Origin: a phage
NCBI GenBank assembly: GCA_014740375.1
Contig: GCA_014740375.1_3041.1
Reading direction: 5' to 3' (one strand)
DNA length: 64,000 nt
Below the pieces are notes generated by a model. It saw only the letters and a program-made list of their open reading frames with translations. It was not told where the DNA came from and ran no database searches. A program made the translations under genes and the position numbers. Positions 16,732 to 22,966 of the stretch are shown one piece after another. Position 1 is the first letter of the stretch; the number at the start of each line of letters is the position of its first letter.

Positions 16732-16735
16732 CAAT

Positions 16736-16753
16736 GGGGACCGAAAGGTCCCC
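16736..16753. terminator. Terminator hairpin between convergent gene 54 and alt-region genes
   Basis: GGGGACC-GAAA-GGTCCCC followed by ATATTTTTATTT. Confidence 0.6.
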
Positions 16754-16759
16754 ATATTT

Positions 16760-17050
16760 TTATTTACGGAATGAAATAAAAGCAGCAACTGAAGCAACTA
16801 AACTGTCTTCAATATAAACTTCAATTTTTACCGGAGCTTCTGACTCAAATTTACCTGTTACTACGCCTTGGAAAATGCTTTCAGTCTGTTCTGGCTTTGA
16901 AAAATTTTCAGAAGGAAAAATTCCGAACTTTTTATCTGTTCCAAAAATTTTAATAAATTCATCGTAAACTGCTTCATTAAAAGCGTTATCAGCAGGAATA
17001 ACGCCTTCAACTACAAGTTCTTGACCTAAAAAGCGTAAAGAAGATTTCAT
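16760..17050 (-). CDS. Hypothetical early protein (alt.-3 position)
   Basis: 96-aa ORF directly downstream of an early promoter and GAGGA Shine-Dalgarno. Confidence 0.6.
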   Translation of the reverse strand: MKSSLRFLGQELVVEGVIPADNAFNEAVYDEFIKIFGTDKKFGIFPSENFSKPEQTESIFQGVVTGKFESEAPVKIEVYIEDSLVASVAAFISFRK

Positions 17051-17081: not shown

Positions 17082-17111
17082 ATTATAACACAACACGAGG
17101 GACTTGTAAAC
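17082..17111 (-). promoter_or_regulatory. T4-type early promoter
   Basis: Minus strand GTTTAC, 18 bp, TATAAT; part of a 54-bp cassette repeated at 32381-32434. Confidence 0.6.
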
Positions 17112-19168
17112 TACATCTTGAACTTTTTAGACATTCCGTTGATGTTAACCAAAGAAGCCAAGATTTGAGAAACTTCGTTTTCCTCTTCTTTTGATTCTTC
17201 TACAAGGAATTGATTAAACCCAGCCATTGGACGAACTTCGCCAGTTTCCATTAGATGATCGCCATCATATACCGATTCTTCTAATTGTTCAGAAGGAGGA
17301 ACGATTGTGCCTTCGATTAGATACTTGTTATAAGCAGTTTCTTTCATCATGTACGTGCTTACTTTATTAATCTTCAACAAAATTCCACGTGGTAGAATAA
17401 CTTCAGCTTCTGATGGAAATCCCGATAAATGACCTGGAACGATAACTTTGATTCGCTCAGCCCCTTTTATTACCATACCTACGCTAGTTTCAGCATCTTC
17501 ATTCGCATAAGCAGAATGACTGCCCATATGCATTAAATCTTCAGCATCAACAGAACCTTCTCCTTCACCAGAAAATACTGCGCCGGAATCATCTAGAGCC
17601 ATATAATTTTTACCATGCTCACCGAAGATATTTGGTTTAAGCGATGTTGATACGAAGTTCTTGAAATAGAACATTTTATTTTCAATATTATGGCGTAAAG
17701 TTTTAAAAGTAACTTCTTGTCCACGATAAAGCGTAGTTCCTGGAGGAAGAACTGAACCTTTGGCAAAGGCAGAATCCAGCGTCTCGATGTGTTTAATAGC
17801 TCGTTCCATATATTCTTCACGGGTAGAATCTGGTTTACCCAAGAGGAACGAGTTCATTTCAACATATGAATCTGCACAATAATCTTCAATTACATCAGAC
17901 TCAGCCTGAGTCAGTCCTTTTGGAGTTACTTCGGTGCTTGCGTATTCATATGCCTGAGCAGCAGATTCATTAATCAATTTATAAATGCCATTCATGACAA
18001 ATTGAATAATAGCTACCTTTTCGTCTGGTGTGGCTTTAGAACCTTTAACTAAATCATTGATAATTTTCTTAATAACATCAAAGCTATTAGAAATATTAAT
18101 GTCAGCGAGATCGCTCAAAATTTTATCGGTTTTATAATCAAAAAATTCTTTATTCTTTAAATATTCTTGAGAACCTTGATGTGTTATATCGCTCTGCAGT
18201 CTGATAGACGGATCACGTAAACGCGCATGGGCCAATGCAATATGATTTCGGAAGCTTTCTAGTTCATAATCGTTAGATTTAAAACGAGAAGCACTTCTCA
18301 TACCACCGATAGCTCCTTTGCCGAAGTTTGAACCAATCTGAATAACACCAGAGTTCATTGGTCCTTCTGCTTTATATACCGGAACTTTAGATTCAAACTC
18401 TTGATATTTCTTGGCAGCGAAGCTATCACCCTGAAGCGAAGCATCGACAGTAGAATATTGAGCTTGCGCTGCTAATCGACGACTAATTTTAGTTTTCTGA
18501 ATAACAGCTTGATCCGTGCGCTTATCATTTTCTAAAGCAATAGAAGCAGCAACAGCAACAGCTTTAGGAACAGCATTACCTGTTTTAACATCTACATAAA
18601 CATCACCAACCTTTGATTCAACTTTTGTGAATAACTCAGTTGAAATAGGAGGTACACCTGGAATGTCTTCTAAATTGGCATTTTTACGGTAAACCATAAT
18701 ATATGCATACTTTTTATCATAATCCCAGATTTCCTTTAAAAGAACATATCGACCTGCTCCTTTAGTACGTACTAAACGGTCAGCAATAACTTGCATTTGA
18801 CGAGCAGCGCCATTTGTTTTACTTTTTAGTACGCGGAATAGGCATGCGTCAATTTTGTACTGTTTCATTGTTTGAAGAGCAGTATCAAAAACCGCATTAA
18901 TGACACCAATTGGATTTCCACCCAAGTTTTTAAGTTTAACTAATGATAGTTTCTCATTGACACCTATCATTACGATATGCATCATTTTATCGCCTGGCTT
19001 AACGTTTTTATTTGTATCACCGCCAGAGGTGTATGTACAAAATCTAAATCCAGGAAGCACGCTTTCTTCACCGGCTTGAATAGCAAAAATTTGAGGTATT
19101 TTATGCTTAGGATTTAAGTTAACAACCGGCGCCGAAGCGCCGTCAAATAATTCTGTAATAAGTTCCAT
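17111..19168 (-). CDS. Alt-like ADP-ribosyltransferase, second paralog (685 aa)
   Basis: About 60-65 percent identical to upstream alt at both termini; ART R-S-E elements (YRG, FVSTSL, EAEVILPRG); divergent central region. Confidence 0.85.
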   Translation of the reverse strand: MELITELFDGASAPVVNLNPKHKIPQIFAIQAGEESVLPGFRFCTYTSGGDTNKNVKPGDKMMHIVMIGVNEKLSLVKLKNLGGNPIGVINAVFDTALQTMKQYKIDACLFRVLKSKTNGAARQMQVIADRLVRTKGAGRYVLLKEIWDYDKKYAYIMVYRKNANLEDIPGVPPISTELFTKVESKVGDVYVDVKTGNAVPKAVAVAASIALENDKRTDQAVIQKTKISRRLAAQAQYSTVDASLQGDSFAAKKYQEFESKVPVYKAEGPMNSGVIQIGSNFGKGAIGGMRSASRFKSNDYELESFRNHIALAHARLRDPSIRLQSDITHQGSQEYLKNKEFFDYKTDKILSDLADINISNSFDVIKKIINDLVKGSKATPDEKVAIIQFVMNGIYKLINESAAQAYEYASTEVTPKGLTQAESDVIEDYCADSYVEMNSFLLGKPDSTREEYMERAIKHIETLDSAFAKGSVLPPGTTLYRGQEVTFKTLRHNIENKMFYFKNFVSTSLKPNIFGEHGKNYMALDDSGAVFSGEGEGSVDAEDLMHMGSHSAYANEDAETSVGMVIKGAERIKVIVPGHLSGFPSEAEVILPRGILLKINKVSTYMMKETAYNKYLIEGTIVPPSEQLEESVYDGDHLMETGEVRPMAGFNQFLVEESKEEENEVSQILASLVNINGMSKKFKM

Positions 19169-19171
19169 GAT

Positions 19172-21268
19172 TTATCCTTGAACGAACTTGTAAGGCATGT
19201 TTGTAATATCTATGCAAGACGCAATAATTCCAAGAGATGATTCTACTTTTTGTTTAACATTTGATGAAACAAATGATGCAAAGTCAACTCTGTCTTCTAT
19301 TTCAATATCACCTGTCATTGCAACTACTTCACCAGTTTCCATTAGACGATCACCGTCATAAATTACTGATTCGGTGAGTTCTTCCGTAGTCATAACTTCA
19401 GCTTGAATGAGTTTTGTATTATTAGATGTTGTTCCGTCATTATTAGAAGCATCAGTTATTTTATTAACTTTGACCATCAATCCGCGTGGTAGAATAACTT
19501 CAGCTTCTGTTGCTATTCCGAGACTTCCTGGATATACAACATTAACTTTATGAGCTCCATCAATTGCCCATCCTATTTGAACTTTAACGTATTCAGGATT
19601 TTCTTTATACGCTCTTATTTCGTTTGGATTAATAGTTATTCCTTCTTCATTTTTATCAACTGTCAGTTCATTACGAGCTTCTGGTTCTAAAAGACCAATA
19701 CCAGCATGTGTAATTCCAAAACGTCCAAAAATGATAGGAGTTAAAGAAGTAGATACAAAATTTCTGAAATAGAACACTTTATTTTTAACTAGTGCTTCGT
19801 ATATAGGAGCAGTCATGCTTTGAGCACGATAAACTGTAATGCCTTCTGGTATACGGTCACCGTTTTCAAAAGCTGAATCTAAGTTATTTATAGCAGATTC
19901 AATTTCTTTTTCACTCATTACATCATATCGTTCTGGATTGTAGCGTCCTAAAAGAAGATTATTGATGTCAGTATATCCTGAACCACAATACTCTCTAATG
20001 CCGCGCTTTTGTGATGGAGTATATTTAGAACCATCACGGGCAATAGTAATATCAATCATTGGACCTGCACCAATTCCAGAAAAACTATAAATCATTCTTT
20101 TGAGGAATTTAGTTTTTGCTGCGTTCCAGGAATTTTTAGTTATTTCTTCCCAGACTTCATCTGGCTGCCCTTTACGAGTTTTATTATGTTTATCAAGCCA
20201 ATTATCTTTATATTCTTCAAAGAGTTGATTAACAGCTGCTGCGTATTTCTCTAAACATTTTATTGAAGTAGTTGGTTCATTTTTAATCGCATTAAGAATT
20301 ACATCTTTAATTTTTTCAGAAACTTCATTAACCTCACTTTTTGAAAAGAATTTATAGTCATAATGAAGTTCATCTGCAGTTCCTTCAGCAATAATTTTTG
20401 CTGCCTTAGTTTTAGAAGCTAATGAATTAATTCCAAGCTTCATTTCTTCTGCTTCGGGAATTAAAGGAGCGGTAGCAGGTTTATTGAAATTAGCTGCGGT
20501 AGATTCATACTTCTGGAATAATTCACTTTCAAATCTAGAAGATTCTAATGATTGACTTTGTGCAATTGCTCTACGGGAAATTTTAACTTTAACGATTACA
20601 GCTTGATCAGAACGTTTATCGTTTTCTTGCGCAATAGATGCAGCAATTGCCTCATTTTTAGTTACTTGAGCTCCGGTATCTTTATTGATATAAACATCAC
20701 CGACCTTCGATTCAACTTTAGTAAAGAGCTCTGTACTAATTTCCGGAACTCCTGGAATGTCTTCTAATGATACATTTTTGCGATGTATAAGAATATATGC
20801 GTACTTTTTATCGTAATCCCAGAGTTCCTTAAGAAGGACGTATCTGCCACCTGAACGACTACGGATAAGTCTATCAGCAATAAGTTGAATTTGACGAGCT
20901 TGACCAGCAGTTTTAGACTTAAGAATACGGAGCATGCAGGCATCAATTTTATACTGACGCATCGTCTGCATCGCAACAGTAAAAACTGAATTGATGTAAT
21001 TAATTGGGCTTGGACCGAGACCTTTTAATTTAGCGATTGAACCTTTAGCAGTTAATGTAAAAGGAACAATATGCATCATTTTATCGCCCATCTTTAAATC
21101 GCGATTAGTATCACCTCCAGATGTATAAGTACATAAACGAAAACCTGGTTGTTCAATTGCGTCATCAACATGAACTGAAAAAATTTGCGGTATTTTCTTC
21201 TTTGGATTTAAGTTTGTAATCGGAAGAGTAGTATCTTCGTCAAATAATTCTGTAATGAGTTCCATCAT
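19172..21268 (-). CDS. alt: Alt ADP-ribosyltransferase (virion-packaged)
   Basis: 698 aa; MELITELFD N-terminus; ART motifs (YRA, FVSTSL, EAEVILPRG); immediately downstream of gene 30 as in T4; late promoter upstream. Confidence 0.88.
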   Translation of the reverse strand: MMELITELFDEDTTLPITNLNPKKKIPQIFSVHVDDAIEQPGFRLCTYTSGGDTNRDLKMGDKMMHIVPFTLTAKGSIAKLKGLGPSPINYINSVFTVAMQTMRQYKIDACMLRILKSKTAGQARQIQLIADRLIRSRSGGRYVLLKELWDYDKKYAYILIHRKNVSLEDIPGVPEISTELFTKVESKVGDVYINKDTGAQVTKNEAIAASIAQENDKRSDQAVIVKVKISRRAIAQSQSLESSRFESELFQKYESTAANFNKPATAPLIPEAEEMKLGINSLASKTKAAKIIAEGTADELHYDYKFFSKSEVNEVSEKIKDVILNAIKNEPTTSIKCLEKYAAAVNQLFEEYKDNWLDKHNKTRKGQPDEVWEEITKNSWNAAKTKFLKRMIYSFSGIGAGPMIDITIARDGSKYTPSQKRGIREYCGSGYTDINNLLLGRYNPERYDVMSEKEIESAINNLDSAFENGDRIPEGITVYRAQSMTAPIYEALVKNKVFYFRNFVSTSLTPIIFGRFGITHAGIGLLEPEARNELTVDKNEEGITINPNEIRAYKENPEYVKVQIGWAIDGAHKVNVVYPGSLGIATEAEVILPRGLMVKVNKITDASNNDGTTSNNTKLIQAEVMTTEELTESVIYDGDRLMETGEVVAMTGDIEIEDRVDFASFVSSNVKQKVESSLGIIASCIDITNMPYKFVQG

Positions 21269-21288: not shown

Positions 21289-21296
21289 TATTTATA
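21289..21296 (-). promoter_or_regulatory. Late promoter (TATAAATA) for alt
   Basis: Exact TATAAATA on minus strand about 21 bp upstream of alt ATG, followed by AGAGAGGA Shine-Dalgarno. Confidence 0.6.
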
Positions 21297-21301
21297 AAAT
21301 T

Positions 21302-21319
21302 AAAGGCCCGAAGGCCTTT
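21302..21319 (-). terminator. GC hairpin (GAAG-type loop) between gene 30 operon and alt
   Basis: AAAGGCC-CGAA-GGCCTTT; overlaps last codons of the 62-aa ORF. Confidence 0.5.
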
Positions 21320-21506
21320 AATAATCTATTGGTAAGAGAGTACGATATATTTCAAACTTTGGACCTTTTTCATAGGCATCAAATGTTTCTGTGAATTTAT
21401 TATAAGCATATGCATCTATAAATTCAATCATAATTTGTGATACAGAAGTAGAAACATCTCCACCTTCTTTTTGAGCCACGACAATTGTTTCTAAGTAAGC
21501 TTTCAT
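21318..21506 (-). CDS. Hypothetical small protein
   Basis: 62-aa ORF; start overlaps gene 30 stop (ATGA). Confidence 0.45.
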   Translation of the reverse strand: MKAYLETIVVAQKEGGDVSTSVSQIMIEFIDAYAYNKFTETFDAYEKGPKFEIYRTLLPIDY

Positions 21507-22966
21507 AGACCAGTTACCTCATGAAAATCACCAAATACATCCTCGAATGTATTAGCTTTAGTTTTATCTTCACGTAAACGAATCGCAATCGGAAGAAATA
21601 ATTTAACGTAATCAGTGCGTCCATCAGATTTTAACCAACCGTTGCATTCGCACTCTAGAATTTTTCCAATATAATAATTTTGGTTTTCCATGATGCGAGT
21701 ACGGTCAAGTTCATGCGATTTTACACCGGCTTTATCTTTTAAGCCTGAACCAGCATTTACTTTAATTTTTCCACACTCTGATTCAAGAATAAATCCACCT
21801 GCTTTAGTAGGGTCTTTACGGTGAGGATAAATTCCTACAATTTTTAAATCAACATCAATTACTTCTTTAAATTTATAGAGATTTTTTGAACGAGCATTTT
21901 CCCACAATCCATCGGTATTTTTGAGAATAATACCTTCAAGACCTTGGTCAATATACTTTTTATAAATTACCTTAGCTTCATCTAGGTTATTTACTACTTG
22001 GTTTTCAATTAAAATTACTTTATCATATCCTGATGTCATTTGTTCTAGTTTAGAAAAACGTACATCATATTTTAAACGAAACGCAGGAAGACCGTATATT
22101 TCTACCAACGGGACATAATCCCAGACCTGAAACTTCATGCATTGAGCTTCTTTTTCAGAAATGGTTCCTTTTAAGGATTTATTGGCGATTCCATTAGAAG
22201 TAGTACGAGATTCCGCTACTTCGGCGAATTCTTTAGCTTTACTAATTTCAGGATAAGCATCAAAAAGAAAATCTAGGCCTTCTGGTTCCTTTTTAACTTG
22301 CTCATGGTATACCAATTCGCCATCAATTAACACACCTTCTGGATGAATCTGGCGGGCTTCAGCAGTCATTTTGATTAACTCTTCCTTAAGAAGATCTAAT
22401 CCTAGATATTCATTACCAGCTCGTGATAAAAGACGAACATCATCTAATTCATCACCTCGGACTTCAGCAAAACACCGAGCTCCATCTGCTTTTAACTGTG
22501 CAAAGGCTGGAAACTTGATATTCTTATTAATGCCTTTTTCATCATAAGAACTTGCCAGCATTTGAGGTTGTTCAGGAATTAAACCTGGCCAAACTTTGTT
22601 TGCAATAGATACTGAAGCACCGCATTCAAGGTCTCGCATCATCACTCGACGCAAAACTTCAACATCATCTTTTTTACCGTCAGTAATATATCCAGTTAAT
22701 TCCTCAATTGCCGCATTTCCAGTCAATTTCCGAGTAGCTAACGTGAATTCAATGAAGTCAAGCATATCGGTAAGAGTCAACATTCCAAAACTCTGGGTAG
22801 CAATACCCGGTTTAGGCCATTTCTTGATATAATACTGTAACCCACGAGAATAAGTCAGACGATATACTCGTTTAAGCAATTCATTATCTTTATTCTTTTC
22901 AAGAATTGCTTGCTTCTGCTTAGTTGAACCAATAGATGCTATTTCGTTCAGAATTTTAAGAATCAT
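21503..22966 (-). CDS. 30: ATP-dependent DNA ligase
   Basis: 487 aa; adenylation motif KADGAR; T4 length. Confidence 0.95.
   Translation of the reverse strand: MILKILNEIASIGSTKQKQAILEKNKDNELLKRVYRLTYSRGLQYYIKKWPKPGIATQSFGMLTLTDMLDFIEFTLATRKLTGNAAIEELTGYITDGKKDDVEVLRRVMMRDLECGASVSIANKVWPGLIPEQPQMLASSYDEKGINKNIKFPAFAQLKADGARCFAEVRGDELDDVRLLSRAGNEYLGLDLLKEELIKMTAEARQIHPEGVLIDGELVYHEQVKKEPEGLDFLFDAYPEISKAKEFAEVAESRTTSNGIANKSLKGTISEKEAQCMKFQVWDYVPLVEIYGLPAFRLKYDVRFSKLEQMTSGYDKVILIENQVVNNLDEAKVIYKKYIDQGLEGIILKNTDGLWENARSKNLYKFKEVIDVDLKIVGIYPHRKDPTKAGGFILESECGKIKVNAGSGLKDKAGVKSHELDRTRIMENQNYYIGKILECECNGWLKSDGRTDYVKLFLPIAIRLREDKTKANTFEDVFGDFHEVTGL

Follow-up and report, generated by a model that had tools for sequence, protein, structure and literature searches.

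Alt2, a second full-length ADP-ribosyltransferase gene beside alt in T4-like phages, is a candidate packaged effector that in T4 is reduced to a stump

The DNA analysed here, referred to below as the window, is a phage sequence of 64,000 nucleotides (nt) (NCBI GenBank assembly GCA_014740375.1, contig GCA_014740375.1_3041.1) and is a segment of a Tequatrovirus (T4-like) genome. Our subject is a pair of adjacent minus-strand genes within it, each encoding a full-length Alt-like ADP-ribosyltransferase (ART): an upstream copy, Alt, and a downstream paralog, Alt2. The ~4.9 kb surrounding the pair are 99.0% identical to Shigella phage ESh26, and identity is at least 95% in 370 phage records. An initial annotation, made from the letters of the window, had described two open reading frames (ORFs) of 698 and 685 amino acids (aa) at this position. 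Both are present in the ORF list, with the upstream product now corrected to 697 aa:

19172-21265, minus strand: Alt, the upstream copy, 697 aa from the second ATG, with an effector allele of the T2/T6 type (ORF list, BLASTP, Pfam)
17111-19168, minus strand: Alt2, the downstream paralog, 685 aa, intact (ORF list, BLASTP, Pfam, and the ratio of nonsynonymous to synonymous substitution rates, dN/dS)

The Alt ORF (19172-21268) opens with ATGATG, and its product would have 698 aa if the first ATG were used. Because the second ATG, at 21265, matches the annotated start of T4 Alt and is better spaced from the upstream GAGG, we take Alt to be a protein of 697 aa. Pairwise alignment confirms that Alt and Alt2 are paralogs, with 41% identity over their full length (BLASTP, E=3e-157). 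A recent duplication private to this phage is ruled out: Dhakavirus has the pair too, and at the DNA level the N-terminal parts of the two copies share only ~69% identity.

We compared Alt, Alt2 and T4 Alt in a three-way alignment with windowed identity, and used two AlphaFold2 models (mean predicted local distance difference test score, pLDDT, 74.7 and 75.5). Alt and Alt2 have four parts in common: an alpha/beta N-terminal module, an all-helical centre, an ART domain and a disordered C-terminal tail. In Alt2 these parts, and the codons for the catalytic residues, lie as follows:

18449-19168, minus strand: N-terminal alpha/beta module, residues 1-240, PF26846 (Tevenvirinae_ADPRT), including the propeptide MELITE with the gp21 protease motif ITE6
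17909-18436, minus strand: central all-helical domain, residues 245-420, diverged (alignment; AlphaFold2 pLDDT 75-92)
17276-17908, minus strand: ART catalytic domain, residues 421-631
17723-17725, minus strand: catalytic codon R482
17648-17650, minus strand: catalytic codon S507
17642-17644, minus strand: catalytic codon S509
17408-17410, minus strand: catalytic codon E587
17402-17404, minus strand: catalytic codon E589
17114-17275, minus strand: C-terminal tail, residues 632-685, a predicted propeptide removed after L629-E630-E631 (alignment, model)

Alt and Alt2 are 55-75% identical over columns 1-240 of the alignment; the values drop to 7-20% for columns 241-440 and are 15-47% over the ART region. 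The N-terminal module of Alt2, 53-75% identical to the corresponding parts of T4 Alt and of the Alt in the window, is putatively the prohead-targeting module. PF26846 is found on its homologues, and the database cluster of sequences 99% identical to Alt2 (772 members) carries both PF26846 and PF03496. The latter family (ADPrib_exo_Tox) scores 129.2 bits on Alt and 72.7 bits on Alt2, against a cut-off of 23.4 bits, and Alt2 belongs to the ART fold. The proposal of a second intact enzyme had hinged on the catalytic arginine, serine and glutamate (R/S/E) of the downstream copy, and these are in place. The catalytic residues are R482, S507-T508-S509 and E587-A-E589 in Alt2, corresponding to R480, S505-T-S507 and E587-x-E589 in Alt. 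The R/S/E positions are invariant in a family alignment of 22 sequences, and T508 is nearly so. The tail of Alt2 is disordered in the model (pLDDT <50).

How different are the two centres? The initial annotation saw shared ends flanking central regions that are largely unrelated. In sequence this stands: besides the low identity just given, profile-profile comparison of the Alt-type and Alt2-type centres yields an hhalign probability of 0.3%, although this is a weak negative since the alignments are shallow (effective number of sequences, Neff, ~1.8). In predicted fold the two centres are more alike. Structure prediction, which had been suggested for both centres, returns two all-helical modules of ~180 residues, predicted confidently, equal in length and similar in helix pattern. 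The AlphaFold2 helices span residues 250-260, 273-281, 286-318, 328-355, 362-374, 381-414, 421-442 and 451-468 in Alt2, and 248-260, 272-302, 309-327, 335-362, 369-408, 417-438 and 452-467 in Alt. A Foldseek search matches the model along its whole length (640-717 aligned columns) with distant Alt proteins from phages of Aeromonas and Shigella. Because of the common length, the similar predicted helix pattern and this whole-model alignment, we consider it more likely that the centres are fast-diverged homologous modules than that they are unrelated insertions. The Alt2-type centre also matches that of a third class of Alt proteins (P0013-15), with an hhalign probability of 98.6%.

Searches outside the family gave little. 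HMMER with the Alt2 centre (residues 236-420) against 1.84 billion cluster representatives returned 0 matches at E<=0.001, which says only that the centre is undetectable outside the Alt family; the sequence that stands for Alt2 in that set is probably a family member whose centre is of another kind. Pfam recognised the ART domain alone on Alt2 and nothing on the centre, and phmmer of Alt2 against the sequences in PDB gave no match. To our knowledge, no member of the Alt family has a solved structure.

The whole Alt2 protein is under strong purifying selection. Compared with T2, T6, AR1 and JK08, its dN/dS is 0.03-0.06 at dS 0.11-0.25, and no module departs from this low level, the centre (0.02-0.09) included. 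By every sequence test, Alt2 appears to be functional. A pseudogene or inactive paralog is ruled out by the intact frame, the invariant catalytic residues and a dN/dS of ~0.04.

What has become of Alt2 in T4? The initial annotation gave T4 a single alt gene with short ORFs behind it, and the T4 record agrees: after alt come alt.-1 (61 aa), alt.-2 (67 aa) and then alt.-3. Comparison of these ORFs with Alt2 identifies them as what a deletion has left of the same gene. Base by base, the T4 remnant can be aligned with the initial ~350 nt of the window Alt2, and the T4 sequence that spans the end of alt.-2 and alt.-3 is 96% identical to the ~400 nt running from the 3' end of Alt2 through alt.-3. 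The window gene is intact, whereas T4 has a -1 frameshift and a deletion of 1,699 bp, which map to the following positions (all from alignment):

19004-19012, minus strand: A-run (aat aaa aac, N53-K54-N55); T4 lacks one A, giving the -1 frameshift that splits alt.-1 from alt.-2
18821-18829, minus strand: upstream copy of the 9-bp direct repeat CTAAAAAGT, left end of the T4 deletion
17122-17130, minus strand: downstream copy of CTAAAAAGT, right end of the T4 deletion

The deletion lies between the two CTAAAAAGT copies and removes residues ~117-680, including the entire centre and ART domain. The T4 junction, GCGTACTAAAAAGTTCAAAATGTAG, retains a single copy of the repeat and is out of frame, which explains the odd C-terminus of alt.-2. 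The T4 lesions were located at 5066-5451 of L001. The text of the T4 record describes alt.-1/alt.-2 as "an old duplication of the first part of gene alt". The two ORFs are better explained as the stump of a full-length Alt2 than as a partial duplication of alt.

The initial annotation regarded an intact second paralog as unusual. The reverse is the case: ~400 of ~500 Tequatrovirus records, together with a Dhakavirus, have the paralog, and T4 is the exception. With the central 181 residues of Alt2 as query, tblastn finds 402 phage records at >=90% identity, among them T2, T6, RB5, RB27, RB51 and AR1, and a further 44 at ~46% in Dhakavirus and its relatives. The two genes are 3 nt apart in the annotated loci of T2, T6, AR1, JK08 and Bas36, and the tandem pair with the same gap occurs in Dhakavirus dhabil and in a metagenomic relative that is more divergent. 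Of 502 matching records, 91 contain the T4-type deletion junction as one contiguous stretch. These 91 include ~12 T4 or T4-derived strains, RB55 and RB59, as well as many independent isolates. The intact pair is, on these counts, the majority state and is probably ancestral, with T4 carrying a minority deletion allele. It had also been considered that T4 and its close relatives might all carry the intact arrangement. T4 does not, but T2, T6, AR1, RB5, RB27 and RB51 carry the second paralog.

Neither the gene nor its arrangement is new. RefSeq gives both copies the name "Alt-like RNA polymerase ADP-ribosyltransferase", and in the BASEL phages the second is called "ADP-ribosyltransferase Alt2". 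Duplications of alt in T4-like phages, including a full-length one in 44RR, were noted in 2006 by Nolan et al. (PMC1524935). Alt2 is thus already annotated, and the arrangement is ordinary for T-even phages. The Alt2 proteins of Bas36 and Bas37, and the unnamed second ART gene of T2, T6, AR1 and the RB phages, are orthologues of the window gene (centre 94-100% identical, 685 aa, 3-nt spacing). We see no material difference between them and the window Alt2, which is one more instance. Shorter versions of Alt2 are also on record, namely P0006 (624 aa), P0008 (528 aa) and P0010 (415 aa; 14 contigs of up to 166 kb). They are 98-99% identical over 61-91% of Alt2 and may be truncations, frameshifts or differences in gene calling. 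In the distant T4-like Acinetobacter phages ZZ1 and Henu6, proteins annotated "split RNA polymerase ADP-ribosylase" (BFVD I3WW50, A0A410T5F4, A0A410T542) appear to have the Alt architecture split over several ORFs.

The upstream gene is a mosaic in its own right. At its two ends the Alt of the window is close to T4 Alt, with 97-100% identity in columns 1-240 and 88-97% in the last ~80 columns at the C-terminus. Identity falls to 11-46% in the centre (columns 281-440) and to 38-75% over the ART region. The region concerned is:

19370-20550, minus strand: centre and ART domain of Alt, allelic region (compared with L001 5455-7503, L007 and L008)

Between the Alt class of T2, T6 and the window and that of T4, AR1 and JK08, dS is ~1.0 and dN 0.26-0.58 in the centre and ART domain, whereas dS is just 0.07-0.2 in the N-terminal 240 codons and the C-terminal tail. 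Alt occurs as two ancient effector alleles set in a young backbone. Alleles of the two genes occur in other combinations: JK08 has a T4-type Alt together with Alt2, and slur03 has a window-type Alt together with the T4-type deletion of Alt2. Further cassette classes are found in related phages (P0009, P0013-15, P0016/18 and P0017).

Two natural chimeras, P0005 and P0007, join an Alt-like 5' part to an Alt2-like 3' part. They switch at ~nt 540 and ~nt 660, respectively, which suggests two separate crossovers inside the conserved N-terminal module. P0005 (L011 4001-6055, a metagenomic contig of 65 kb) is the sole alt gene between alt.1 and alt.-3. P0007 (L002 5001-7061) occupies the position of Alt, directly after alt.1, on a contig that ends just past the gene. 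The contigs are metagenome assemblies and call for caution. The chimeras point to unequal recombination between the tandem paralogs. Their existence suggests that the Alt2 effector half can ride on the N-terminal module of Alt, which fits a generic delivery module, and indicates that the N-terminal modules of Alt and Alt2 are interchangeable.

The signals for packaging and processing of T4 Alt have counterparts in Alt2. T4 Alt is present in the prohead core in ~40 copies and is ejected with the DNA (PMC9026906). The protease gp21 cleaves it after ITE-6 and LTE-619, as found by mass spectrometry, to give a mature protein of 68.2 kDa (PMC5694885); the mass that we calculate from the two sites, 68.2 kDa, agrees with the published value. 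Aligned with these sites, Alt2 has ITE6 and L629-E630-E631, and the two glutamates concerned, E6 and E631, do not vary across the family alignment. E631 of Alt2 aligns with E619 of T4 Alt; the S-V-(I)-Y-D-G-D block that follows is invariant, and its longer form, SV(I)YDGDxLMETGE, is conserved. The protease motifs of the window Alt are ITE6 and LTE632. We infer that Alt2 is packaged, and the predicted mature protein has 625 aa and a mass of 69.1 kDa.

Alt2 thus resembles T4 Alt (gpAlt, NP_049811), the head-packaged NAD+:arginine ADP-ribosyltransferase, in its PF26846 module, helical centre, R-S-E ART domain and C-terminal tail. The locus between alt.1/gene 30 and alt.-3/gene 54, the late promoter, and the ITE-6 and LxE motifs are also alike, with ~42% overall identity. 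The two differ in their central 180 residues, which are unalignable (3-23% identity in columns 241-440; hhalign probability 0.3%), and in the ART region, which is only 28-47% identical, with an unlike segment between the STS and ExE motifs. The internal proteins of T4 offer a second comparison: in them, too, a conserved N-terminal signal for targeting and processing is joined to an injected cargo that is variable, and close relatives differ at the locus (PMC9026906; bioRxiv 2025.11.20.689424). However, the internal proteins are small and non-enzymatic, with a targeting sequence of 10 residues, whereas Alt and Alt2 combine a module of 240 residues with an enzyme. The R-S-E toxins of the C3, VIP2 and iota types and the MuF-fused phage ARTs share the ART fold and the R/STS/ExE active site, and the MuF-fused enzymes are likewise delivered by fusion to a head-associated module (PMC5512222, PMC9503650). 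In contrast to all of these, Alt2 is without MuF, a binary-toxin adaptor domain or a secretion signal, and by analogy with T4 Alt its delivery would be via the prohead core.

The genes appear to be expressed as one late unit. The initial annotation had placed a late promoter before the upstream copy, and a TATAAATA motif is found there, at a position conserved across relatives. The signals for the pair, and the genes that precede it, are:

21503-22966, minus strand: DNA ligase, gene 30 (gene order)
21318-21506, minus strand: alt.1 (gene order)
21302-21319, minus strand: GC-rich hairpin (AAAGGCCTTCGGGCCTTT) after alt.1, directly upstream of the late promoter (read from the sequence)
21289-21296, minus strand: T4-type late promoter motif TATAAATA for the alt operon (motif and conservation)
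19175-19179, minus strand: Shine-Dalgarno AAGGA for Alt2, within the last codons of Alt (junction sequence)

Before the start of Alt, the order is GC hairpin, TATAAATA, GAGG and start codon. TATAAATA is at the same position upstream of alt in T4, T2, T6, AR1, JK08 and Bas36, and in the more distant relative L003. The hairpin AAAGGCCTTCGGGCCTTT is kept in the first six of these phages, and dhabil and L003 have a closely related hairpin (AAGGCCTTCGGGCCTT core) at the same position. The octamer alone is not enriched in the window, with 12 matches against 8.95 expected. A second exact TATAAATA occurs inside the Alt coding region (19885-19892, minus strand), ~720 nt upstream of the Alt2 start. We considered it as a private promoter for Alt2 and did not adopt it, given this distance and a motif count at chance level.

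At the junction of the two genes, the Alt stop codon TAA (19172-19174) is followed by a 3-nt spacer (19169-19171) and the ATG of Alt2, with AAGGA 6 nt upstream of that ATG (caAGGAtaaATCatg; also written out as cAAGGAtaaATCatg). The junction is identical in all Tequatroviruses examined (T2, T6, AR1, JK08 and Bas36), including the alt/alt.-1 junction of T4. No terminator was seen between Alt and Alt2. The gap of 3 bp and the Shine-Dalgarno sequence had been noted in the initial annotation, and the reading of the junction bears them out. The layout of promoter and junction, with no terminator seen between the genes, supports well a model in which the pair is co-transcribed from the late promoter and Alt2 is translated independently or by coupling.

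Downstream of Alt2 lie the following features:

17082-17110, minus strand: strong promoter of the sigma-70/T4-early type (TTTACA-17-TATAAT with TG, 11/12) for alt.-3 (promoter search)
16760-17050, minus strand: alt.-3 orthologue, 96 aa, DUF5498 (ORF list, Pfam; the same 96-aa sequence as T4 alt.-3)
16734-16755, either strand: bidirectional intrinsic terminator closing the alt operon and the convergent gene 54 unit (terminator prediction)

The alt.-3 promoter begins 1 nt past the Alt2 stop codon and is kept in T4, downstream of the deletion. Beyond alt.-3 are the convergent genes 54, 48 and 29. Mutants of T4 with a C-terminal extension of Alt.-3 escape the CmdTAC defence (PMC11618068). The Bas37 orthologue of alt.-3, bas37_0031, is depleted in one transposon comparison (log2 fold change -2.70, q=0.02).

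What is the function of a second Alt? The initial annotation proposed a second packaged effector, and this is still the best reading because the downstream copy, an intact gene, keeps the N-terminal module and both prohead-protease sites; packaging and injection are the presumed steps. We favour, with moderate confidence, the view that Alt2 is a second packaged, injected, arginine-specific ADP-ribosyltransferase whose set of substrates is partly or wholly distinct from that of Alt. The late promoter at 21289-21296 would give a single transcript through alt and alt2, from which Alt2 would be translated by means of its own AAGGA. The N-terminal module of 240 residues, with its MELITE propeptide, would carry Alt2 into the scaffolding core of the prohead, and cleavage by gp21 after ITE6 and LEE631 would give a mature protein of ~69 kDa. 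Once injected with the DNA, mature Alt2 would use NAD+ to modify arginines of host proteins.

In this enzyme class, the helical centre and the segment from STS to ExE are expected to face substrates. The all-helical centre of Alt2 shares little sequence with that of Alt, and in the alignment its 77-residue STS-to-ExE segment is dissimilar as well; hence, the targets of Alt2 would probably differ from those of Alt and serve host takeover, counter-defence or both. ExE, as opposed to QxE, is the motif linked to arginine acceptors, which suggests that arginine is the acceptor for Alt2, as it is for Alt. In a 2025 preprint, growth against Mokosh type I was restored by T4 Alt but not by the Alt of Bas37 (bioRxiv 10.1101/2025.11.20.689424), and the failure of the Bas37 protein to replace that of T4 indicates that variation in Alt has functional consequences. 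The alt and alt2 genes of Bas37 have the same lengths and the same 3-nt spacing as those of the window. In a transposon library of Bas37, insertions in Alt2 (bas37_0032) hit 116 of 164 TA sites, with a mean count of 44.5 and the class "Intermediate", and insertions in Alt, classed as non-essential, hit 164 of 179 sites, with a mean count of 203.6 (bioRxiv 10.1101/2025.11.20.689424, supplement file 8). The authors do not comment on the deficit, which could mean that Alt2 adds fitness on K-12 or that truncated Alt2 is harmful.

Several points weigh against a second injected enzyme with targets of its own. Alt2 is dispensable in nature, as the 91 records with the deletion allele, T4 among them, demonstrate. 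The sole argument for a distinct specificity is divergence, and since ExE predicts the same acceptor for Alt and Alt2, their targets may overlap, for example at RNA polymerase alpha. The lower coverage of Alt2 in the Bas37 library could reflect toxic truncated products or technical bias. In the searchable literature on T4-like phages, we found no report of virion proteomics for Alt2, and no enzymology, target or other functional study of it.

A broader account is tentative. In this account, the alt locus would consist of a constant head-targeting module (240 residues and two propeptides) recombined with anciently diverged effector cassettes (helical centre and ART domain). Alt2 would be a counter-defence or takeover effector with its own target that outweighs Alt on some hosts, and T4 would be without this arm. 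The under-represented insertions in Bas37 Alt2 hint that it may outweigh Alt in this way.

Alternatively, Alt2 could be a redundant dosage copy that is packaged, active and directed at the same targets as Alt (e.g., Arg265 of RNA polymerase alpha), providing a back-up or a higher injected dose. The ExE motif of both proteins, with the arginine acceptor that it predicts, their common delivery module and operon, and the loss of either gene in nature, through the T4-type deletion or in chimeras that drop the effector half of Alt, would all fit such a role. Nonetheless, we consider it improbable. Divergence to 7-20% identity in the centre and 15-47% across the ART region is not expected to be maintained in purely redundant copies, each lineage is under strong purifying selection within itself, and the pair persists in Dhakavirus; even allelic variants of Alt are functionally unlike. 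Still less probable is that Alt2 is not injected at all, its role being either a late one in the cell that produces it or chiefly that of a structural or scaffold-associated head component with secondary activity. Transcription from a late promoter and the want of proteomic evidence for Alt2 in virions would suit that idea, and the under-represented insertions in Bas37 would fit an assembly role or dominant-negative truncated products. However, Alt2 conserves the N-terminal module and both protease motifs of the packaged T4 Alt, its catalytic residues are invariant, and a structural role that is essential would be hard to square with its dispensability in T4 and 90 further records. We give least weight to a substrate other than protein arginine and plain ADP-ribose, such as NAD-capped RNA attached to proteins (as by T4 ModB) or nucleic acid, which would be quite unlikely.

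A second injected, arginine-specific enzyme with at least partly distinct targets is the explanation of Alt2 that we retain. Knowledge of injected phage ADP-ribosyltransferases comes nearly all from T4, the relative that lost Alt2, whereas an uncharacterised Alt2 is encoded, and perhaps injected, by most T-even phages in nature, many candidates for therapy among them. T4 Alt helps the phage to evade the Mokosh type I defence, and variants of Alt are not interchangeable (bioRxiv 10.1101/2025.11.20.689424). Hence, it is plausible that Alt2 and the alternative alleles of Alt help to determine which defended hosts are open to takeover by a phage.

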